Below are positions 52,901 to 64,000 of a stretch of 64,000 bases of DNA, in pieces. Both the position numbers and the translations under genes were made by a program. The DNA is from an uncultured Spirochaetota bacterium. GTDB lineage: Bacteria; Spirochaetota; Brevinematia; Brevinematales; JAOACQ01. The first letter of the stretch is position 1; each line of letters opens with the position of its first letter. The stretch lies in NCBI GenBank assembly GCA_963835575.1, contig CAWIGG010000005.1, forward strand, positions 352,001-416,000, read 5' to 3'. The notes below the pieces were generated by a model that saw nothing but the letters and a program-made list of their open reading frames with translations, was not told the DNA's origin and made no database searches.

Positions 52901-54862
52901 TTAAAATAAAGGATCCAGAACTCCTGAAATAATATAATTTTCTCTTTCTTTTTTTATTTTAAATATAACATATGAATAAGGTTTCCCGGCTATCAATTTA
53001 TAAGCCTGGATATACAGCTCATTATTCGTCTGATTCTGAGTATCATACAAAAATTGAATATTCGTATCAATTGCGGCGCTTCTTTCCCTGTCTGCCGGAA
53101 TAGTTTCAAAATCCCCGGATGCCTCATTTGTTTTATCAATTTTGACATTTTTACTATTTATTTTCTGATAATTATAAAAACTGTTTACGGCGTTAATGAT
53201 CATTTCACCGTTATTATTCGTTACAAATAAAATCCGGTTATCAGACAATTTTTCTTCAAGCATATCCATTTTTGATTTTGCTTCAATAGATAAAATATAA
53301 TATTCAACAATAATATTTGTATTGGAATTTTTAACTAATTCTATCGAATTGGTAAAAACACGATCCGGGTAACGTTCAATGAGCGATACCTTGAGCGGAA
53401 TGGGAAAATTGTTGTTTATAATAATCATTCTTTTGGCATCTATTGATATGCCTTTTTTAATTTTATTTGTCACAAAAACATTGATATAAGAAAGCTCAAT
53501 ATTATAGAGCTTATTATCCTTCCAGAGGGACAGAGCATCGCCGTTAATCAAATTGGTCATTTCACTGTCCGTTAAATCAGAAGCAGTCTGTATTAACTCA
53601 TCCAGCCCGACCTCAGTATAGGAATATTTCTGGATAAGCATATTGACATAATTATAAAATTCATCTTTATTCTCGCCGAATGCCGAATGAAGCACATTAA
53701 CGCCGTAGATGTAGTTGAATAATCTCAAATTTGTTTGATTGGCCAGCTGAAGATTAATCAAATCAATCCTGTTTCTTTGAATGAATTTATTATATATCGC
53801 CGGATTATAATAAGCTATGGTCGTCAGGCCCATATACTCGGCAAAAGACTCCGATTCAATATAATCTTTTTCCTCAAATTTTAAAAATGGAGGCACATAA
53901 GCATGGGAAAGCTCGTGCGCCAGTACCTCAAACAGCTTTGCATAGCTCTGCCTCGGGATATAAGGGATCGCAGAATTTTCAAGTTGCTCATCATCCAGAA
54001 GGCCGTCGGATGTCAATTCGGGAGATATCTGCACGATATTGGCCATCTTTTCGCCGTCTATGAATTCCTCGGTGTCCTTATACTGAAACAGCTCATTAAC
54101 CACATATGTCTGGGAATAAGGGTATTTCCACAATCTGTTTGATAAAAAATCAATCGTTTTGGATGTATCATCGAAAATCAGGCCGATATTATTCGTTTCA
54201 GTAGTATAAACGCTTATATTATCTTTCTTGATCCTTTCAAACAAGCCGATGAAAATGTCCCCGGTATGCAGGATATCATCAGTCTCGCTTTCCCATAATG
54301 TGGTTTTTTTATTGTTCTTTACGGACTCTTCCTGCTCTTTCCCGCCCATTACCGTATAATAATTATCCGGAGTTATTATCTTGATTGAATAAAGAAAGGC
54401 CGGCAAATCGGCAAAAGGGACCGGCAGCCATATTTTTTTAGCGTCCATAAAAACCGTATCCGCAGTCAGGAGAAAACGGTCTTCCTCCACAGGCCCGCTG
54501 ATATGGAACTTGATTTCAATTTTCGCCGACGCTCCGCTTAAAAGAGAAGCGACCCGGATCCTGTATATACCGCTTCCATAACCTATTCCCTGTTCAAAAC
54601 GGATTGTATCCCCGTTATAGCGGATGTTGTCGATTATAACCTGGGAATGGGATATGAAAAATATTTCCTGAAGGGTTTTATTCTGTTTATTTTTAATTGT
54701 ATAAATCAAATCCCCGGACATGGAAACATTATCCGGATCAAAACTGACATCGCCTTCCAGGAACTGGACAGAAACGGTTTTTCTGAGCATGAACTCGTCG
54801 CATGAGACAAAAATAAGACAAAAGCTTAGCGATAAACAGTAAAGAATTTTCCTGAGAAACAT
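52901..54862 (-). CDS. Lipoprotein, M1/gluzincin-like metallopeptidase
   Basis: Lipobox FVSC; AHELSH followed by ESFAEY. Confidence 0.7.
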   Translation of the reverse strand: MFLRKILYCLSLSFCLIFVSCDEFMLRKTVSVQFLEGDVSFDPDNVSMSGDLIYTIKNKQNKTLQEIFFISHSQVIIDNIRYNGDTIRFEQGIGYGSGIYRIRVASLLSGASAKIEIKFHISGPVEEDRFLLTADTVFMDAKKIWLPVPFADLPAFLYSIKIITPDNYYTVMGGKEQEESVKNNKKTTLWESETDDILHTGDIFIGLFERIKKDNISVYTTETNNIGLIFDDTSKTIDFLSNRLWKYPYSQTYVVNELFQYKDTEEFIDGEKMANIVQISPELTSDGLLDDEQLENSAIPYIPRQSYAKLFEVLAHELSHAYVPPFLKFEEKDYIESESFAEYMGLTTIAYYNPAIYNKFIQRNRIDLINLQLANQTNLRLFNYIYGVNVLHSAFGENKDEFYNYVNMLIQKYSYTEVGLDELIQTASDLTDSEMTNLINGDALSLWKDNKLYNIELSYINVFVTNKIKKGISIDAKRMIIINNNFPIPLKVSLIERYPDRVFTNSIELVKNSNTNIIVEYYILSIEAKSKMDMLEEKLSDNRILFVTNNNGEMIINAVNSFYNYQKINSKNVKIDKTNEASGDFETIPADRERSAAIDTNIQFLYDTQNQTNNELYIQAYKLIAGKPYSYVIFKIKKERENYIISGVLDPLF

Positions 54863-54887
54863 GACGTATTAACTCCCAGAGTATAAA

Positions 54888-55265
54888 CTACTTTAAACCA
54901 AACAATCTTTTTATGAAATTCCAGATCCTTATGAAAATATTCGGGGAAAGGAGTTTTTTCTTTTTCGCAAGCCCGTCGTTCAGTTCTTCTATGGTAAAAT
55001 CCTTTCTGACCATATTTTCATGCATTTCCATTTCCAGAAAATCCAGCCCGCTTTCCGGGATAATGACGCGCACCTCAATGTCCCTCCAGCCCAATTCCCG
55101 CGCGGCGCATAATCTTCTAAAACCGCTGATCAGATCATTCTGGGGAGTGATCACTATGGGATTGATCAGACCGTATTTTTCAAGGCTGGATTTTAAATTT
55201 GACAAGTCCCCGATTTCTTTTCTAACCCTTTTGCCGATTATAATATCATTAATGGCAATCTTCAT
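54888..55265 (-). CDS. ParB N-terminal domain protein
   Basis: GLINPI, LISGFRRL, ENMVRKD. Confidence 0.85.
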   Translation of the reverse strand: MKIAINDIIIGKRVRKEIGDLSNLKSSLEKYGLINPIVITPQNDLISGFRRLCAARELGWRDIEVRVIIPESGLDFLEMEMHENMVRKDFTIEELNDGLAKKKKLLSPNIFIRIWNFIKRLFGLK

Positions 55266-55408
55266 AACGAACTCCGTTAAGAATAAAATAACTTAATATA
55301 GTATAATGAGTTAATGCAATAGTGTCAATTTGTTTAAAAGTATTATTTGTTCCATTGATTTTTATCCGGATGTGTTTTAAAGTAATGATCTCATCCCTAT
55401 GATAAACC

Positions 55409-56251
55409 ATGGAAAGGATTTTTATAACTATGATATACAATCCGTTTTCAGTCCAATTTTTAAAAGAAGCCCTTCATCAAAATAAATTATGGCTTTCACA
55501 GGAAAGAGGACAGAATTATCTCATCGACAGGAATAATGCCGTAAAAATAGTCTCATGCATTCCCCCTGCTTCAACAGTACTGGAAGTCGGAAGCGGTATG
55601 GGCGCTCTGACCTGTCTTATGATAGAAAGTCACAAGGTTTTTTCCATCGAGATCGATAAGGGAATTTTTGAATTCCTCAATTCTGAGCTGAAAAGCCCGA
55701 ACTTAATTCTCTTTAATGAGGATTTCCTGAAATTCGACCTGTCAAAGCTCAAAGAGAAAGATCTTTTTTTCGTATCCAATGTTCCCTATTCCATAGCGGG
55801 CGAAGTGATAAAAAAATTCATCGACAGCCCGGAGTTCAATGCCGGCATCATGATGCTTCAGGAAGAGCTTGTCGGGAGAATACTGGCCCGGCCGTCCTCC
55901 TCTCAGTTCGGCCCTTTTTCCATTCTCTGCCGGTATTATCTTGATATTGAAAAACTCTTCCCTGTCAGCAGGAATAGTTTTTTCCCGGCTCCTTCCGTCG
56001 ACTCCGCCGTTATTCAAATGAAAAAGAAAAAGACTTCCATTCCCCAGGACGCATTCAACCTTTTCCTGAGAAAGGCTTTCCTCGCGAAAAGGAAAACCAT
56101 CTATAACAATTTAAAAGATTCAGGCTTTTCGAAAGAAGCGCTCATTAAAACCGGCGTTGACCCTGCGGTCAGGCCGCAGGATATAACAATCGAGCTTTGG
56201 GAGAAGCTCTATTTGGAATTTGAGAAACTGCAGAAAGCCTTTCAGACATGA
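55409..56251 (+). CDS. rsmA: 16S rRNA adenine dimethyltransferase
   Basis: GQNYL, EVGSGMG, EID, NVPY, F.PAPSVDS. Confidence 0.92.
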   Translation: MERIFITMIYNPFSVQFLKEALHQNKLWLSQERGQNYLIDRNNAVKIVSCIPPASTVLEVGSGMGALTCLMIESHKVFSIEIDKGIFEFLNSELKSPNLILFNEDFLKFDLSKLKEKDLFFVSNVPYSIAGEVIKKFIDSPEFNAGIMMLQEELVGRILARPSSSQFGPFSILCRYYLDIEKLFPVSRNSFFPAPSVDSAVIQMKKKKTSIPQDAFNLFLRKAFLAKRKTIYNNLKDSGFSKEALIKTGVDPAVRPQDITIELWEKLYLEFEKLQKAFQT

Positions 56252-56271
56252 GGGTTTTTTCCGGCAGCAAC

Positions 56272-56605
56272 TGCCGGGGGTTTTTACCGGCTGACAGCCA
56301 GGGGGATTGCTACCTTTCTGTCTTTTCGAAAAGACAGAAAGGTAGCACCAAAGAAAGAAAACAGGTCGAGGCCATTTTCATACTAAGCAGTCGGATAATA
56401 CCGAGGAGTGCTATCCGGCTTTTAATAAACTGTTCCTCATTGAAATAGCCTCCTCATGTCGCCGTCCGATGGCTTTATTCGTCGGTTTTGACATCCGTGT
56501 CAAAAGCATGTGCCTCTCTTCTATTATTATAGCAGCGGATGACACGTCAATAAATCGAGATATTTGATGTGCTGATTATGGCCAGGAGGAAAATGGCCTC
56601 GGGTT
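56272..56605. repeat. Hairpin family H2, inverted copy
   Basis: Reverse-complement homolog of 23060-23460. Confidence 0.82.
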
Positions 56606-56679
56606 CGGATGGTTTTTTGAGCGGCTTTTTTGATTAATATTTTTTTCATTTATGATAAACCATTCTTTTTTATCCGGTA

Positions 56680-56701
56680 TAACAGACATTCCTGTCTGTT
56701 A
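56680..56701. repeat. Intergenic copy of the RAYT-associated REP
   Basis: taacagaca-ttcc-tgtctgtta. Confidence 0.75.
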
Positions 56702-56848
56702 ATCTGTTCAAAATTCCTACGCCGTAGATTCTTACCTATCTAATGACTAAAATTAAAGAATTATTTGTTATAAGACTTTGGCTTAATCATTTGAAAAGAT
56801 ATATAATTAATGAATTAAACAACCCTGAATTTTTCAAAGGATTGAAAA

Positions 56849-59800
56849 ATGGAAATGAAGGAAAAGCTGAAATCGTTAAAAATACTTACGGATAATTTCA
56901 AAGCCAACATTAAACAATATAAAAGTCTTTCCTATGACGAAGCCAATACACGGGTGGATTTTATCGATAAATTCTTCGAGATTCTGGACTGGGATGTCAG
57001 AAACGAGCAGGGTTATTCCGAGGATTACAGGGATGTGGTGCGTGAAGACAGGGTCGTCATCGCCGGAAAACCGAAGGCGCCGGATTACAGCTTCCGCATC
57101 GGCGGCGGCCGCAAGTTTTTCGTGGAAGCCAAAAAACCCAGCGTCAACGTTAAAGAGGAAATCGATCCGGCCTATCAAATCCGCCGTTACGGTTATACCG
57201 CGAAAGTTCCCCTGTCAATCCTGACTGACTTTGAGGAATTCGCCGTTTATGACACCCGCATTAAGCCCCACAAAAACGATAAGGCAAGCGTCAGCCGGGT
57301 CTTCTACTGCATTTACGACGAATATGAAAAGCAGTTCGATTTTATTTACAATACTTTTTCTAAAAACGCCATACTCAAGGGGAGCTTCGACAGGTATATC
57401 GGGGAAAGCAAAATCAAAAAAGGCACTTCGGAAGTGGACAGGGAATTCCTCAAGCTTATCTCGGACTGGCGCGAGGAGCTGGCGAAAAACATTGCGCTCC
57501 GGAATTCCGACCTCGATATTTACCAGATCAATTACGCCGTCCAGAAAATCATCGACAGGGTCATATTTCTTCGGATCGCCGAGGACAGGGGCACGGAAAA
57601 GTACGGCAGTATCCGGGAAATGACCGGGCAGAGGAACGCCTACGCTTCCCTGAACTCATTATTTGTCAGGGCAAACGACAAGTACGACAGCGACCTCTTC
57701 AAAATCGAGCCGTTTCTAGTTAGCCTCTCCATAGACAACGATCTTTTGATTGATATTGCTTCACAAATGTACTACCCGGACTGTCCTTATGAGTTTTCCG
57801 TGCTTCCCATCGAGGCGCTGGGAAATATCTATGAGCAGTTCCTCGGCAAGATCATCCGGCTTACCGCCGGACATCAGGCCAAAGTGGAAGAAAAGCCGGA
57901 AGTCAGGAAAGCCGGCGGCGTTTACTACACCCCTCAATACATTGTGAATTATATCGTTGAAAATACCGTGGGCGCCCTATTAAAAGGTGAAACATGCAAC
58001 CCCGGTGCCACAGGCATTCCTGCCTGTGGCAATAATCCCGCGTTAAAAATAAAAAAGAGAAACCTGCCTCACTGGACAATCGATGACGCGACATATTTTA
58101 TCACTTTTAACAGCATTGACAGAAAACCATTATCATCAGAAGATCAGAAAATAGCAATGGATCATATTAAAGAGGGAAATAATAAATTTTATGATTTATT
58201 ATGCGTTGTAATAATGCCGGATCATGTTCATCTCATATTCAAACCCCTGGAAAAGTACAACCTGCCGGATATTATGAAAGGGATAAAGGGCGTATCAGCG
58301 CATAAGATTAACGTGAAAAACGGCGGCACAGGTTCGATCTGGCAGGACGAGTCTTATGACAGGATTATCAGAAATGAAAAAGAACTGATTGAAAAGATAC
58401 ATTATATGTATGATAACCCGAAAAAAGAAGGTTTAACAGAAGAAACTTACGATTATTCCGGCTGGTATTTTAATGAGGAATATTTTGGAAGCCCTGCAGA
58501 TCAGTCTGTTGATAAAGTCACAGACAGGAATGTCTGTAATACCGCTGGTAAAACCAGTAAAAGAAGTGGTACAGACAACCGTGCCACAGACATTCCTGTC
58601 TGTGGTTCACCAATGACCCCCGCTGAAATCTCCAAACTTAAAATCCTCGACCCCGCTTGCGGTTCCGGCTCGTTCCTGATCGGGGCTTATACATACCTCC
58701 TCAATTACCATAAAAAATACTACACCGATGAAAAGAGGATCGGCAAGGCCCTCAAGGAAGGGAAAATCTACCAGATCGACGAAAAGCATTACCATCTCTC
58801 TATAAAGGAAAAGCAGAAGATACTTCTGAACAATATCTACGGCGTGGACATCGACCCTCAGGCCGTGGAAGTGACCAAGCTTTCGCTCTATCTCAAGCTG
58901 ATGGAAAACGAGGCGTCCGAAACGGAAGAATTCCTCGGCGGGCATGAATGGAAAAGCGGAAGGGACAAACTCCTGCCCGGCCTCTCAGACAATATCAAAT
59001 GCGGCAACAGCCTCATCGCCAGCGATTTTTATGATGACTCAGGCTCCCTGTTCGATAAAGAGACGATCCGGTCGATCAATGCATTTGATTGGGAAAAGGA
59101 GTTCCCGGAAGTATTTAAAACTTCAACGGAAAAAGGTCCACGCAATATCAATGGTGCCACAGGCATTCCTGCCTGTGGTCAGGATCATCCCGGCGAGGGT
59201 AATAAAAAGTCCACAGACAAGAATGTCTGTGACACCAATGTCTGTGGCACCGTATCTAATACCGGCGGGTTTGATGTGGTGATCGGGAACCCGCCGTATA
59301 CCTACTTAATTTCTTTAGAGGAACAAAAATATTATTCTGAGAAATACAAACATCAGGATTATCAAAAAGACCTTTATTTATTATTTTTGGAAAGATACAG
59401 CAAATTATTAAAAATAAATGGGGTTTTAGGTATCATTATATCTAATACCTGGCTTCAATCGTTGACATATCAAAAAATTAGAATCTATATGACATCTTTT
59501 TACAAATGGAAAAAGATTTTACATATACCTGAAAAGGTCTTTAATGCCGTAGTTGATACTCATATTTTAATATTTGAAAGAAAAGATATTTTAGAAACGG
59601 ATGATTATAATTTTGATATTGAAATTTTAAGAAATAATAGTATTGTTCCTTCTCATACACTGTCAATTAAAGATATACCTCGAAACGGTGATTCAATCAA
59701 CATTGTGGCTGATAAATCAAAGAGAGTTATTTATAAAAAAATCATAGGAAAATCAAAACTTTTAAAAGAATTATATACTGTCTATAACGGAGTGAAACCT

Positions 59801-60472
59801 TTTGAAAAAGGTAAAGGAAATCCGCCTCAAATGGAAAAGACAATGAAAGAAAAACCATTTGTTAAAGAAGGTAAACGTCCCGGAAAGGAATGGAAACCTT
59901 TATTAAGGGGCAGTTTGATAAACCGTTATATAAATCTTTGGAATAAAGATTACTGGATTCTTTATGGTGAATGGTTGGCTGCGCCAAGGAATCCTAAAAT
60001 ATTTGATGCAGAATTAAAACTGCTTGTTAGGCAGACTGGAGATTCAATAATATCTACAATAGTACAAGAAGGTTATATCGCAAGAGATAATTTACATATT
60101 ATTTTATCGAGTAATAACAATAATTTATTATACCTATTAGGAATATTAAATTCTAAGCTAATGGATTTTGCTTATACTATTTTAAATCCAGAAAAAGGTG
60201 AAGCCTTAGCTCAAGTAAAGAAAGAACATGTTGAATATTTACCTATTAAAACAATAGATTTCTCAAAACATCTAGAAAAAGAAAAGCATGATAAAATGGT
60301 TTCACTCGTCAACAAAATGCTAACTACTCAAAATGAAATCAACAACACCAAAAACGAGCAGGATAAGGCGCTTTTACAGAAGCAGGCCGACCTTCTGGAC
60401 AGGCAGATCGACCGGCTGGTGTATGAGCTGTATGGGTTGACGGAGGAGGAGATCAAGGTGGTAGAGGGATGA
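56849..60472 (+). CDS. Type IIG (Eco57I-like) restriction-modification enzyme with an in-frame RAYT domain
   Basis: PDY...VEAKK nuclease; GVYYTP, LDPACGSGSF and GNPPY adenine methyltransferase motifs; C-terminal TRD and IDRLVYELYGL. Confidence 0.92.
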   Translation: MEMKEKLKSLKILTDNFKANIKQYKSLSYDEANTRVDFIDKFFEILDWDVRNEQGYSEDYRDVVREDRVVIAGKPKAPDYSFRIGGGRKFFVEAKKPSVNVKEEIDPAYQIRRYGYTAKVPLSILTDFEEFAVYDTRIKPHKNDKASVSRVFYCIYDEYEKQFDFIYNTFSKNAILKGSFDRYIGESKIKKGTSEVDREFLKLISDWREELAKNIALRNSDLDIYQINYAVQKIIDRVIFLRIAEDRGTEKYGSIREMTGQRNAYASLNSLFVRANDKYDSDLFKIEPFLVSLSIDNDLLIDIASQMYYPDCPYEFSVLPIEALGNIYEQFLGKIIRLTAGHQAKVEEKPEVRKAGGVYYTPQYIVNYIVENTVGALLKGETCNPGATGIPACGNNPALKIKKRNLPHWTIDDATYFITFNSIDRKPLSSEDQKIAMDHIKEGNNKFYDLLCVVIMPDHVHLIFKPLEKYNLPDIMKGIKGVSAHKINVKNGGTGSIWQDESYDRIIRNEKELIEKIHYMYDNPKKEGLTEETYDYSGWYFNEEYFGSPADQSVDKVTDRNVCNTAGKTSKRSGTDNRATDIPVCGSPMTPAEISKLKILDPACGSGSFLIGAYTYLLNYHKKYYTDEKRIGKALKEGKIYQIDEKHYHLSIKEKQKILLNNIYGVDIDPQAVEVTKLSLYLKLMENEASETEEFLGGHEWKSGRDKLLPGLSDNIKCGNSLIASDFYDDSGSLFDKETIRSINAFDWEKEFPEVFKTSTEKGPRNINGATGIPACGQDHPGEGNKKSTDKNVCDTNVCGTVSNTGGFDVVIGNPPYTYLISLEEQKYYSEKYKHQDYQKDLYLLFLERYSKLLKINGVLGIIISNTWLQSLTYQKIRIYMTSFYKWKKILHIPEKVFNAVVDTHILIFERKDILETDDYNFDIEILRNNSIVPSHTLSIKDIPRNGDSINIVADKSKRVIYKKIIGKSKLLKELYTVYNGVKPFEKGKGNPPQMEKTMKEKPFVKEGKRPGKEWKPLLRGSLINRYINLWNKDYWILYGEWLAAPRNPKIFDAELKLLVRQTGDSIISTIVQEGYIARDNLHIILSSNNNNLLYLLGILNSKLMDFAYTILNPEKGEALAQVKKEHVEYLPIKTIDFSKHLEKEKHDKMVSLVNKMLTTQNEINNTKNEQDKALLQKQADLLDRQIDRLVYELYGLTEEEIKVVEG
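58006..58605 (+). mobile_element. RAYT (Y1 HUH transposase) domain with flanking REP palindromes, embedded in frame
   Basis: RNLPHW, YFITF, MPDHVH (HUH), WQDESYDRIIR, Y..DNP; REPs at 58006-58031, 58520-58537 and 58584-58605. Confidence 0.9.
59153..59251. repeat. REP doublet (REPIN-like) inside the RM coding sequence
   Basis: ggtgccacaggcattcctgcctgtgg ... cacagacaagaatgtctgtg ... aatgtctgtggcacc. Confidence 0.88.
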
Positions 60473-60518
60473 CGGCGTTGAACTTTTTTAGGCAAAATTT
60501 GCATAGAAAGGAAGTTTT

Positions 60519-60959
60519 ATGAGTTTGACTTACTCGCTTGATAATTCTGATGACTTGTTTGAAAAACTAAAATATGATTACAGTAACTTGAATAATGAAT
60601 TAAATGCTTATACTTTTTTCAATTTTATTATAACAGCATATCATTTGAAGCAGTGGATTGAAGAAGATGAATTAAAATCTGAAACTCGACAGCAAAAAAT
60701 AAAAGAATTTAAAAAATCCTCTTATTATAATATTTGCCGGGACATAACAAATGCAAGTAAGCATTTTAAATTAAATTATATCCCAAAAACACAAGATGCA
60801 AACTTGATGAGTGGATGTGGTGTTGGACGGTGCGGTCATGGCGCTTGCGGAATAGGCGAATGTTCAATAGAAATCATTATGATTGATGGAAGGAAATTTG
60901 ATGCTTTGGAAGTTGCTAATAAAGTTATGAAAATATATTCGGATATATTTGAAAAATAA
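60519..60959 (+). CDS. Hypothetical protein
   Basis: AT-rich ORF with RBS; NFIITAYHL..W and CRDITNASKH motifs. Confidence 0.7.
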   Translation: MSLTYSLDNSDDLFEKLKYDYSNLNNELNAYTFFNFIITAYHLKQWIEEDELKSETRQQKIKEFKKSSYYNICRDITNASKHFKLNYIPKTQDANLMSGCGVGRCGHGACGIGECSIEIIMIDGRKFDALEVANKVMKIYSDIFEK

Positions 60960-60978
60960 AGTGATATTATTCCCCAAA

Positions 60979-61320
60979 CATCCGCGCGAAGCCGTCTCAT
61001 CCGCGTCATCCGTGTGGAATTGGGGTCTATAAACCAGCTTTAGTAAAAACAAAAAGGAATTATCAAACAACAGCTTTTCTATTACCGGCGCAGCCCTTAC
61101 TGCTTAACCACCGAACCCTTCCGTGCCATTCCGTGCCATTCTGTGGCCATCCCCTCTCCGTTCACCTTCCCGTCTTCCTACCTTCCTGTAAACCCTTAGC
61201 GTTCCTTCGCGTGGCTTCGCGGATTACCCCATTAGACCCCTTCCTGCCTTGTAAATTCCCAAATTCGCGTTCATTCGCGTGGCCCTTCGATACGCCCTTC
61301 GGGCTACTCAGGGCAAGCCT
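60979..61320. repeat. Cluster of periodic repeat modules plus a cccttcga..ctcaggg REP
   Basis: Modules are shared with 62601-62968, e.g. aacccttagcgttccttcgcgtggcttcgcggattacccc. Confidence 0.8.
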
Positions 61321-61457
61321 TGCCGCAAGCATAGGCTTCGTTTCTTCTATTGCATTTACCCTTATGGAAAAGTATAGGAAAGTCGGAAATTGAAGACTTT
61401 TGATTAATTTCCAGTTATTGATCCCGGCGGACGGCGAACTGCCGTCTATGATCCGGC

Positions 61458-62384
61458 TTACTTCTCCGACAGGAACTTGATCATATCCCTAACGGACAAA
61501 TCGGGGGCCTCCTCCATCGAGACATGGCCGAGGTTGGTGTATATGACAAGTCTCGAGCCGGCGATATCCTGATGGAACCGGTAGGCGTTCTCCACCGGGA
61601 TGACCTTGTCCTTCATTCCCCACATGATCAGCGTCGGCGTGCGGATAGTTTTGATCAGACCCGAGCTGTCCGGTTCGGAGATCCGCATCCTTTTGCCGAT
61701 CTCGTCCCTGTTTCCTTCCCTCATGATAAGCTCATAATAACGGTCTTCGGTCTCCGGCGTCAGCTTGGACCTGTCCGCATAAGCGAGCTCGATATTCTTG
61801 ACCACCATCTTTTTGGTCGTCAAAAATTTTACCAGCTTGCCGAAAAAAGGGATTTTAGCCGATTTGAGCGCCGGCAATGTTGTCGCAGACGGGTAGCCGC
61901 CCGCGTCTTCCAGGACAAGTTTCGAGACCTTGCCGGGATGGGCGACGGTATATTCCCATGCCACCCTTCCGCCCATGGAATTACCGCAGAGAGCAAAATT
62001 GGAGATTTTCAAATACTCTGTCAGCTGGTCCACGGCCCGTACCGAGCTCTCTGTTGTCGGAGGATGGCCTTTCCATGGCCCTGTCAGGCCGAAGCCGGGC
62101 AGATCGAGCCTGATGACGCGGTAGCGGTTTGTCAGGTTCCGCACCCATCCGTCCCATGTCTGGAGCGAGGATGAAAAGCCATGCAGCAGAATGACAGGGT
62201 ATCCCGAGCCCTCGTCCCTGTAGTGAAAGGCTGTGCCCTCAAGCACGACGAATTTCGAGTCCTCGTTGGCGTATTTGGCCATAAGCCGGCTGACAGGAAT
62301 ATCCGGGTTTCCGAAATTAACCGTTAAGACCGCACCGGCAAGCAGGACAACGATGACAATCAGGACTACGGTTGAACGTTTCAT
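61458..62384 (-). CDS. Membrane-anchored alpha/beta hydrolase
   Basis: HGFSSS, DLPGFG, GNSMGG, WG.KD, GHVSMEE. Confidence 0.92.
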   Translation of the reverse strand: MKRSTVVLIVIVVLLAGAVLTVNFGNPDIPVSRLMAKYANEDSKFVVLEGTAFHYRDEGSGYPVILLHGFSSSLQTWDGWVRNLTNRYRVIRLDLPGFGLTGPWKGHPPTTESSVRAVDQLTEYLKISNFALCGNSMGGRVAWEYTVAHPGKVSKLVLEDAGGYPSATTLPALKSAKIPFFGKLVKFLTTKKMVVKNIELAYADRSKLTPETEDRYYELIMREGNRDEIGKRMRISEPDSSGLIKTIRTPTLIMWGMKDKVIPVENAYRFHQDIAGSRLVIYTNLGHVSMEEAPDLSVRDMIKFLSEK

Positions 62385-62600
62385 AAGTCCTCCTTAATAG
62401 GGAAAATTATAATTCTCGCATCCAAAAATCGCAAAAAATGGGGCCAGTGTCGGTACTGGCTAAGCCAGTACCTCCCAACGGAAAATCGTCCCGCCGGCCT
62501 TCGACACATAGGCTGAAGGCTTAGAGTTAATAATCCTCGAAAATCCGCGGGACTTGTGCCGAGTGCCTTGCCTGCTGACGCAGGAAGGCAGGTAGTCGAG

Positions 62601-62968
62601 TCATCCGCGCCCATCCATGTGAAATTGGAGTTTACTAAAAAGCTTAAACAAAGCCTGAAGGACTTCTCTCTTATTTTTCTCTGTATTCCAGTCTTAGCTC
62701 TCTGTACCCTCTGTATTTAAACACCGAATCATTCTCTGCAATGTCAGCCAACTTGAAATCCAATAAAACCGCTCCATAAATCATACCTTCGTACCTTCCG
62801 CCTTCCTGTGAACCCTTAGCGTTCCTTCGCGTGGCTTCGCGGATTACCCCGTTCGTGGTCCCTTCCGTGCTATTCCGTGAAATTCCGTGGCTAAACCCTT
62901 TCCGTCCTCTTCCCGTCTTCCCACCTTCCTGCCAATCCCCATTCGCGTCCATTCGCGTGCATTAGCGG
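62601..62968. repeat. Cluster of periodic repeat modules
   Basis: Shares direct-repeat modules with 60979-61280. Confidence 0.8.
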
Positions 62969-62982
62969 ATTACCAACTCTGA

Positions 62983-64000
62983 TTACAAACTCTTCAAAAT
63001 ATAGTCCATCGAGCTCGATATGGACAGGGCCCTGGAAATAGACATCGCCGCGATATTCGCGAAAGAGTCCAGATACCTGACTTCGTCTTTCGAAAAAAAG
63101 GTTTTATCATCCTTCTTTAAAATGGCAATGACGCCGATCACCGAATTGTTGGCCGAAAGCGGCATATAAAACCATGGGGATGAGGAAAGAGTGTCCGTGC
63201 CGCGGCCGGCTGTCTTATTATTTTTATAGACCCATTGGGATATGCCTTTTTCATTCTCGCCGAATACGGCCCTGTCCTCTGTTTCCGCCATGATCTTAAC
63301 ATTATCTTCCTTGCCGGGCAGGAGAACAATCACGTCGCTCTTGAAAAAATCCCCGATATTTTTAATGATTGAACCGAGAAGTTCGCTCAGGTTATTACGG
63401 CTCAAGAGCTCCTTGCTGAAATTGTAAATCGTATAAAGGAATTTTTCCTGCTTCTTGTAAGTATCTATTCTCCAGCGGACCATATCGGACAAAATGCTGG
63501 TCGTTACGCCGACGATAAAAAAGACGATGAAAATCGGCAGATACTGGATGTCGCTTATGGAAAAGCTGAAAAAAGGCTTGACAAAGAAAAAATCGAGAGC
63601 GGCGACGGATAAAAGAGAAGCCCAGACACCCTGCTTCCTGCCCCAGAAGAAACTCACTATCAGTACCGGCAGGAGCATCAGCATAATGATGTTTGTAAAC
63701 CCGAGTATATGAATGAGAAAATAACACACGGTTGTAACAGCGATCACAATTAGCGAAGGAACGATATATTTTGTCCATTCCCAGCTTTTCCCTGTCTCGG
63801 ATTTAACTTCCTGCCTTGAAGACTCCCCCGTTGTATCGACCAGCATCACATGGATAGGTTTTACTTTCCCGATCAGTTCCCCGACTACCGATCCCCGGAT
63901 CAGGTTGTCCAGACGCGACCGGGATGAAAAACCGATCAGGATCAGGGTCACATGGTTTTCCTTTGCGAACGAGGCGATCTCGTCAGCGATCCTGTCCGCG
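62983..64000 (-). CDS. kdpD: KdpD-like sensor (USP, DUF4118 TMs, GAF); 5' end outside the window, no kinase domain
   Basis: GSVVGELI USP, ALDFFFVKPFFSF, AGRGTDTL GAF motif; the stop follows the GAF domain. Confidence 0.8.
   Translation of the reverse strand, partial: ADRIADEIASFAKENHVTLILIGFSSRSRLDNLIRGSVVGELIGKVKPIHVMLVDTTGESSRQEVKSETGKSWEWTKYIVPSLIVIAVTTVCYFLIHILGFTNIIMLMLLPVLIVSFFWGRKQGVWASLLSVAALDFFFVKPFFSFSISDIQYLPIFIVFFIVGVTTSILSDMVRWRIDTYKKQEKFLYTIYNFSKELLSRNNLSELLGSIIKNIGDFFKSDVIVLLPGKEDNVKIMAETEDRAVFGENEKGISQWVYKNNKTAGRGTDTLSSSPWFYMPLSANNSVIGVIAILKKDDKTFFSKDEVRYLDSFANIAAMSISRALSISSSMDYILKSL

Follow-up and report, generated by a model that had tools for sequence, protein, structure and literature searches.

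How does a transposase that normally stands alone come to lie, together with its hairpins, inside the coding sequence of a restriction enzyme, and what keeps it there? This question is raised by a gene in a 64,000-nucleotide stretch of DNA from an uncultured Spirochaetota bacterium (contig CAWIGG010000005.1, positions 352,001 to 416,000 of the forward strand; hereafter the window), in which positions 56849-60472 (+) form a single uninterrupted frame of 1207 amino acids (aa). The frame encodes a type IIG restriction-modification (RM) enzyme in which all RM motifs are present, and within its methyltransferase core lie a REP-associated tyrosine transposase (RAYT) and repetitive extragenic palindromic (REP) hairpins that are translated along with the host. 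Based on sequence comparisons, we suggest that this in-frame REP-RAYT cassette probably persists as an active passenger, using the expression and mobility of the host gene and not serving restriction.

The best PADLOC match of the 1207-aa protein is the type IIG REase-MTase PDLC03604 (E 3e-175), and Pfam detects HSDR_N, Eco57I, N6_Mtase and TaqI_C. As in PDLC03604 and other Eco57I-like IIG enzymes, a predicted nuclease, an N6-methyltransferase with motifs I and IV and a specificity domain share one chain, and the catalytic motifs are in place: PD (aa 78-79) and EAK (aa 93-95) in the nuclease, followed by YYTP (aa 359-362), LDPACGSG (aa 600-607) and NPPY (aa 814-817). A first-pass annotation of this DNA, made from the letters alone, had described the frame as open and the RM motifs as intact, and both statements hold. 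Unlike Eco57I-like enzymes, the window protein has insertions of 208 and 47 aa in its methyltransferase core. The features of the gene are as follows.

56849..60472 (+): type IIG RM gene, 1207 aa, open frame (open reading frame, Pfam, PADLOC)
57053..57265 (+): N-terminal nuclease domain HSDR_N, aa 69-139, PD...EAK (Pfam, motif)
57923..57934 (+): YYTP, host flank left of insert 1 (motif)
57995..58618 (+): insert 1, 208 aa, aa 383-590, in the order REP, RAYT, REP, REP (homologue spacing)
58005..58031 (+): REP1, foot GTGC, 11-bp stem, translated GATGIPACG (DNA-fold z -5.3)
58043..58492 (+): RAYT / TnpA-REP domain, aa 399-548 (Pfam, NF047646, 4ER8 match, AlphaFold, Foldseek)
58520..58542 (-): REP2, inverted, foot GTAT, translated TDRNVC (DNA-fold z -3.9)
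58581..58604 (+): REP3, foot GTGC, translated ATDIPVCG (DNA-fold z -2.6)
58646..58669 (+): methyltransferase motif I, LDPACGSG (motif)
about 59123..59263 (+): insert 2, 47 aa, REP-only inverted doublet of REP4, REP5 and a half copy (spacing; fold z -4.9 for the whole doublet)
59154-59177 (+): REP4 in insert 2 (fold, repeat search)
59213-59235 (-): REP5 in insert 2 (fold, repeat search)
59288..59299 (+): methyltransferase motif IV, NPPY (motif)
59400..60250 (+): target-recognition region, TaqI_C aa 1016-1133 (Pfam, GC profile)

The larger insertion occupies the loop between YYTP and motif I (site 1). The spacing from YTP to DPACG is 242 aa here, compared with 34 aa in 101 of the 114 nearest host homologues that were measurable at the loops (119 were examined, the best of 8000 scored). 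Insert 1 therefore amounts to 208 aa, with borders that are deduced from the empty spacing and are uncertain by a few codons, in good agreement with the roughly 200 aa first noticed between GVYYTP and LDPACGSG. The Y1 HUH domain that had been recognised inside it is indeed complete: the insert matches Y1_Tnp with 34.9 bits (cut-off 23) and REP_Tyr_transpos NF047646 with 84.9 bits (cut-off 80), and the motifs MPDHVH (aa 456-461), WQDESYDRIIR (aa 498-508) and YMYDNP (aa 519-524) were located within it. These comprise the HuH pair, H459-V-H461, and 60 aa further on the catalytic tyrosine Y519 (YxxxNP, Y519MYDNP). The guide-binding residues, given in PMC6006769 as W94, Q95, E/D100, H/R101 and R104, are present by spacing as W498, Q499, D504, R505 and R508. 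The RAYT domain has neither a start nor a stop codon of its own.

The domain also matches the TnpA-REP structure 4ER8 by sequence, and a Foldseek search with its AlphaFold model returned 4ER8 as the top match (E 1e-8). In this alignment-based model the predicted local distance difference test score (pLDDT) is 89-98 across the RAYT and below 50 in both linkers, and the RAYT is predicted to fold independently between two disordered, REP-encoded linkers. The model was built on an alignment (A4) in which left and right host rows were kept separate; from the single sequence the pLDDT was only 32. Its host part is a poorly resolved fragment (predicted template-modelling score 0.43) by which reassembly of the methyltransferase halves is not demonstrated, but the two halves could still come together around the RAYT. 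Judged by motif spacing, type IIG methyltransferases have two loops into which a 200-aa domain can be accommodated.

The palindromes bracketing the RAYT, which had been reported as translated, are genuine hairpins by their DNA-fold z scores; a forward one precedes the RAYT, and a reverse and then a forward one follow. Insert 2 (59123-59263), which the first-pass annotation had overlooked along with a REP copy upstream of the gene (56677-56699), lies before NPPY (site 2), where the spacing is 68 aa versus 21 aa in 93 of the 114 homologues. It contains no enzyme, and with it the number of full REPs translated in the RM gene is five. In 80 metagenome loci, the exact REP core occurs 65 times in the 37.6 kb within 250 nt of related RAYTs and 6 times in the 173 kb more than 1 kb away, and 27 of the 70 free metagenome RAYT genes have it. 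With this enrichment of about 50-fold next to free relatives, the REP is the cognate hairpin of the clade to which the insert RAYT belongs. The four other RAYT-like genes of the genome are distant (26-32% identity where matched) and have GTAGAGAC-type hairpins, so that no cognate transposase besides the fused RAYT was found in this genome, which is 94% complete. At a separate locus (G000 C4:784590-788302), a type IIG-like gene is followed immediately by a free RAYT containing a GTAGAGAC-type hairpin.

None of the 114 measurable homologues carries a RAYT at site 1, and 6 of them hold other short inserts there. By this comparison the RAYT cassette is optional for its IIG host. Three further IIG proteins do carry a site-1 RAYT (P0003, P0013 and P0018, 60, 48 and 41% identical to the window RAYT), a count that is a lower bound, and P0003 combines its RAYT at site 1 with REPs at site 2. 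In L008 and P0193, members of the same IIG family and the latter one of the nearest homologues, a different Y1 group that is 25-31% identical to the window RAYT occupies site 2; in P0193 the Y1 motif ends in NNR, not NP. Unrelated short repeat-like peptides were also observed in both loops (L002, L003, L009, L011, P0150, P0152, P0162, P0166, P0198 and P0228), which argues that the two loops are general landing sites. In a quick LG+G4 host tree of 30 selected rows, from which the insert columns had been removed, a clade of the window protein with P0013 and P0018 was rejected (approximately unbiased (AU) test, p 4e-8), and the window protein was grouped with six proteins that lack a RAYT, in a clade that is starred.

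The distribution of the cassette across the order indicates that it arrived laterally. Among 35 genomes from the order, one contains the clade of the window RAYT, and the REP core, found 10 times in the source genome, has single imperfect matches in 2 of the 34 others. A DNA search in four congeners found the neighbouring genes but not the RM gene, except for a 103-nt patch in one. Two readings of the insert had been offered at the outset: a selfish REP-RAYT unit sheltering in a tolerant loop, and a module domesticated for the RM enzyme. The former is upheld by the RAYT-free nearest hosts, by carriers that do not form a clade and by the many non-defence hosts described below, whereas the latter is not supported.

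The same genome holds the site-1 loop in three versions: with the full cassette, with a REP doublet and empty. The doublet is found in a paralogue (G000 C2:249429-252521) that is 41% identical to the N-terminal part of the window protein. At its site 1, ENTVGALLKGET is followed by a reverse REP, a forward REP and then MPPEEI, and there is no RAYT. The left junction, ALLKGET, is common to the paralogue and the window protein, and LLKGET occurs in 0 of 118 homologues. Over the 21 nt after ENTVG, the paralogue has 18 positions in common with the window gene, compared with 13 and 15 for its own sisters; these share 82-83% identity with the paralogue, and their 34-aa loop is empty. As the stretch is short, this junction is suggestive and not proof; it suggests that the doublet is either a remnant left after transfer of the loop and loss of REP1 and the RAYT, or a precursor that a RAYT entered. 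Motif I of the paralogue reads DLACGSG instead of DPACGSG.

We then asked how often related RAYTs lie inside other proteins. A search of long proteins recovered 27 others with a RAYT in frame, in type ISP enzymes (6), a partial ISP-like protein (1), IIG-like enzymes (4), RecG (4), class I tRNA synthetases (6), DUF1156-type proteins (4), CarB (1) and MmeI (1), nearly all of which have repeat-like linker peptides. Free relatives outnumber the fused ones (474 hits, the best 50-60% identical). A scan of 8 of the 64 parts of the GTDB collection, from which the best 80 of 525 were kept, gave 84 loci, of which 59 are free genes and 23 lie within long frames, contig edges accounting for the other 2. 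A host domain is recognisable in 19 of the 23 and in 4 there is none, so about a quarter of the sampled loci of this RAYT group are fused (19-23/84). The 19 hosts include PurH (2), RecG (3), MetH (3) and tRNA synthetases (3), in addition to ThiE, GcvP, archease, an aminotransferase, CarB, Ham1, DUF1156 and MmeI; DNA methyltransferases account for 2. Among the 80 metagenome loci, 70 are free, 4 lie at edges and 6 are fused, the hosts being type ISP (3), ThiE (1) and DUF1156-type proteins (2, one without a Pfam hit). In these samples the closest relatives are often housed in RM enzymes, whereas in the wider sample such hosts are a minority. In-frame RAYTs were seen in PurH, glycine dehydrogenase, ThrRS, MetH, CarB and Ham1 of Planctomycetota and Verrucomicrobiota (L018, L070, L080, L085, L088, L092, L095, L097 and L099). 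In a pair of type ISP proteins (L108 and L109), the RAYT inserts are 95% identical and the upstream specificity segments 34%, a pattern of a retained cassette next to an exchanged module.

REPs are also found in frame at a distance from the fused RAYT. In 17 of 54 fusions, chosen by eye, further REP peptides more than 120 aa from the RAYT are present in 11 of 11 RM fusions that are flanked by this REP family and in 0 of 6 non-RM fusions, compared with 1 of 119 homologues without this RAYT. These distant in-frame REPs fit a seeding of hairpins in cis.

The fused RAYTs do not appear to be decaying, as the catalytic tyrosine is kept in most of them and the ratio of nonsynonymous to synonymous changes (dN/dS) is low. 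YxxxNP is retained in 52 of the 54 fused domains and HuH in 53; of these counts only that of the tyrosine is informative, since most GTDB loci were found by the HuH pattern. In four same-host pairs dN/dS is 0.08 (MetH, hosts 95% identical; dN 0.073, dS 0.893), 0.15, 0.17 and 0.20. Across 120 free relatives, 38 columns show conservation of at least 90%; the window RAYT itself retains 36 of these, against 33-38 (median 37) in the relatives. It had been proposed that neutral decay of the insert in relatives would speak against domestication, but this does not discriminate, as fused copies in non-RM hosts are not decaying either.

These observations can be accommodated by a sequence of events in which a REP-bracketed RAYT would have inserted, in frame, into the loop that joins the YYTP helix to motif I and lost its own start and stop, thereafter being made whenever the RM gene is expressed. 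Disordered REP-encoded linkers would let both RAYT and methyltransferase fold. According to PMC8266576, TnpA-REP binds single-stranded REP and nicks at a dinucleotide that the foot determines, forming a 5'-phosphotyrosine bond and joining strands. By analogy with this chemistry, HuH and Tyr519 may nick single-stranded DNA beside a REP hairpin and rejoin it elsewhere, giving insertions of REPs or REP doublets. Within coding DNA, only in-frame REP insertions in tolerant loops would survive, which would account for insert 2. Recombination within the conserved flanks, YYTP and DPACGSG, may further carry the loop from one type IIG paralogue to another, and if the RAYT were lost from between its REPs, the REP-only state would remain, as in the paralogue. 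A selfish element depends on fresh empty alleles, and these would be supplied by lateral transfer of RM genes together with recombination between paralogues at conserved motifs.

Among known systems, the cassette is closest to REPtrons (class 2 TnpA-REP of PMC6006769; E. coli TnpA-REP, 4ER8), with which it shares HuH and YxxxNP, the guide-binding W, Q, D, R and R, inverted short hairpins that bracket the RAYT and recur in the genome, and a single copy of the gene with dispersed REPs. It differs in that the RAYT lacks its own start and stop, lies inside another gene and has REPs translated as linkers, and in its foot, which is GT[AG][CT] in all 11 genome REP copies found regardless of foot and not the GT[AG]G of REPtrons; elsewhere the foot is GTAG or GTGG in 75 of 113 REP copies and GT[AG][CT] in 2 of 113. 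It is REPtron-like but set apart, since the RAYT is not a free-standing gene with extragenic REPs and the foot is not GT[AG]G. Judged from the spacing of its motifs, with 60 aa separating HuH from Tyr and with W, Q, D, R and R in place, the domain is most similar to subclass 2.7. Three other candidates were rejected: TnpA-Y1 subclass 2.4, described as having about 88 aa between HuH and Tyr and REPs inside the transposase gene, by the distance of 60 aa and the lack of a REP between HuH and Tyr; IS200/IS605 elements, which have YxxxQ and many near-identical copies, by YxxxNP, an NF033573 score of 24.1 against a threshold of 55 bits and the single copy; and an intein, by the absence of a splicing Pfam family at E 0.01 and an insert that ends ...VCGSPMT.

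Inteins have a splicing domain and a terminal His-Asn before Cys, Ser or Thr, and those with homing endonucleases are nuclease-bearing parasites that lie in frame near conserved host motifs and occur as filled and empty alleles. The window insert resembles them in its nuclease, its frame, its position near conserved motifs and its filled and empty alleles. By its sequence, it differs in having neither a splicing domain nor a C-terminal His-Asn, so it would remain in the mature protein, and its enzyme is a predicted single-strand HuH nickase. A further parallel is provided by REPs within genes (PMC3733652) and by the palindromic elements of Rickettsia (PMC3184786), which are palindromes translated in unrelated proteins, thought to lie in flexible loops; PMC3733652 lists an Opitutus terrae N-6 DNA methylase with one in-frame dimer of REPs. 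Insert 2 and the paralogue doublet are of the same kind. Those elements carry no enzyme as described there, whereas insert 1 includes the cognate transposase. In the view that RAYTs normally stand alone between extragenic REPs, "extragenic" needs qualifying in the light of the in-frame REPs in PMC3733652. Tentatively, intragenic REPtrons might be regarded as distinct mobile elements that have given up their own start and stop, become permanent unspliced domains of their hosts, seed hairpins in cis into loops of the same gene and home between RM paralogues, the window copy having a shifted guide tetranucleotide and a shifted cleavage specificity; we consider this possible but doubtful as a whole.

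The extragenic REPs of the genome belong to a larger unit, one copy of which lies upstream of the RM gene.

56280..56702 (+): dispersed intergenic element, 300-430 nt, whose 3' end is the REP copy 56677-56699 (genome repeat search, alignment)

The element is present at 32 merged loci in the genome and has no match in the four congeners. A copy lies within 2.5 kb of 6 of 9 N6-methyltransferase RM genes, compared with 6.4% of random 3-kb segments. Other copies lie upstream of genes that, from their first residues only, we take to resemble type III mod, type I hsdM and cas3, and several copies are interrupted by about 1.9 kb.

A number of these observations weigh against an active passenger. All six extragenic REP copies align as the 3' end of the dispersed element, and for this reason they may have spread with it and not via the RAYT. 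The GT[AG][CT] foot may reflect either retargeted cleavage or loss of the substrate; in PMC8266576, with GTAC in place of GTAG, one enzyme was redirected to cleave at GA and GT, and another showed sharply reduced cleavage. On the RAYT tree, a single clade of IIG site-1 inserts is not rejected (AU p 0.46 and 0.56); these trees are quick and weakly resolved (148 and 40 rows, with the AU test on 40 of the 148) and independent origins are not proven. Since the host tree does reject the corresponding clade, either RAYTs must have inserted repeatedly at site 1 or the loop must have been passed from host to host. Several of the type ISP fusions with distant REPs are related, leaving perhaps 4-5 independent cases, none of the 6 non-RM fusions has distant REPs, and REP-rich genomes with tolerant loops would produce distant REPs too. 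Frequent RM hosts among the closest relatives would also be expected under domestication. Regarding selection, 7 of the 12 same-host pairs are saturated, one type ISP pair has a dN/dS of 0.5 on few changes, and the 12 include neither a IIG pair nor the window copy; purifying selection on a single-copy passenger may stem from a requirement that it fold within an essential protein.

We therefore weighed the passenger against four other explanations. If the RAYT were kept for a general cellular benefit, as proposed for free RAYTs, its location would be a harmless accident and the element not selfish. Orthologous fusions under strong purifying selection, MetH among them, the single copy of the RAYT in the genome, and the discussion in PMC5581495 of RAYT persistence that hitch-hiking does not explain would all agree with this. 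A generally useful gene is harder to reconcile with an order in which 34 further genomes that were searched, 24 being at least 90% complete, lack the clade, with a REP count of only about 13, with the presence of four further RAYT-like genes in the same genome and with a paralogue with a RAYT-less derivative of the same loop, and we consider this explanation unlikely. Still less probable is domestication for the RM enzyme, with the RAYT sensing or nicking single-stranded hairpin DNA of invaders or diversifying the specificity region. The repeated arrival in the same two IIG loops (P0003, P0013 and P0018 at site 1; L008 and P0193, with the other Y1 group, at site 2) and the frequency of RM hosts among the closest relatives speak for it, as does a specificity region (59400-60250) that has likely been swapped recently as a module: it is AT-rich (GC 25-37%, third-position GC down to 8%) and bordered by GC-rich conserved parts, much of the core being at about 49%. 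This region is, however, not flanked by REPs, the same loops accept unrelated short repeats that bring no enzyme, and 17 of the 19 identified GTDB hosts are not DNA methyltransferases. Domestication for restriction is made unlikely by the 0 of 114 nearest homologues with a site-1 RAYT and by relatives that sit in RecG, tRNA synthetases, MetH, PurH, CarB and type ISP enzymes.

Another alternative is that the cassette was inserted recently and has become inert, the RAYT folding but no longer acting on the altered hairpins and heading for loss. This could explain the non-canonical foot of all 11 copies, the RAYT-less paralogue and the failure of homologue and order-genome searches to find a close relative with the same fusion. 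Yet 36 of 38 conserved columns are retained, the altered foot is common to all intragenic and extragenic copies, which suggests that they spread with it, and a second REP insert lies within the same gene; this account thus seems rather improbable. The fusion is very unlikely indeed to be an assembly artefact at repeated palindromes. Reads from two DNA runs (share 0.06), aligned at 85%, gave no piece spanning the junctions, but both inserts are in frame and lie exactly at two loops that vary among homologues, the same layout recurs in independent proteins such as P0003, and the contig is 487 kb long in a genome of 7 contigs.

The authors of PMC6006769 set long proteins aside as "gene fusions or annotation errors", so that classification dropped RAYT fusions as errors; about a quarter of the sampled GTDB loci are of this kind. 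The persistence of RAYTs as single conserved copies is posed as an open question in PMC5581495, in the accessible text of which the words "fused" and "fusion" do not occur. Our literature search yielded no account of an entire RAYT lying within another protein, although figures, other supplements and most subscription journals could contain one. Full, REP-only and empty versions of one loop in one genome make the question of RAYT persistence directly testable. If active, the cassette would represent a third route, besides self-splicing introns and inteins, by which a parasite can live inside coding sequence.

Finally, we considered the surroundings of the gene. An Rfam scan of 54000-64000 gave no matches, and therefore no known intron or RNA family lies there; a promoter scan gave 6 candidates versus 3.1 expected, no useful excess over chance. 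Directly 3' of the RM gene lies an AT-rich open reading frame of 146 aa (60519-60959, +) with a Gly/Cys-rich patch and no match in Pfam or PADLOC. Further downstream, 60980-61350 and 62786-62979 belong to a separate repeat family with TTCGCGT-type words, which has 30 hits in the genome.

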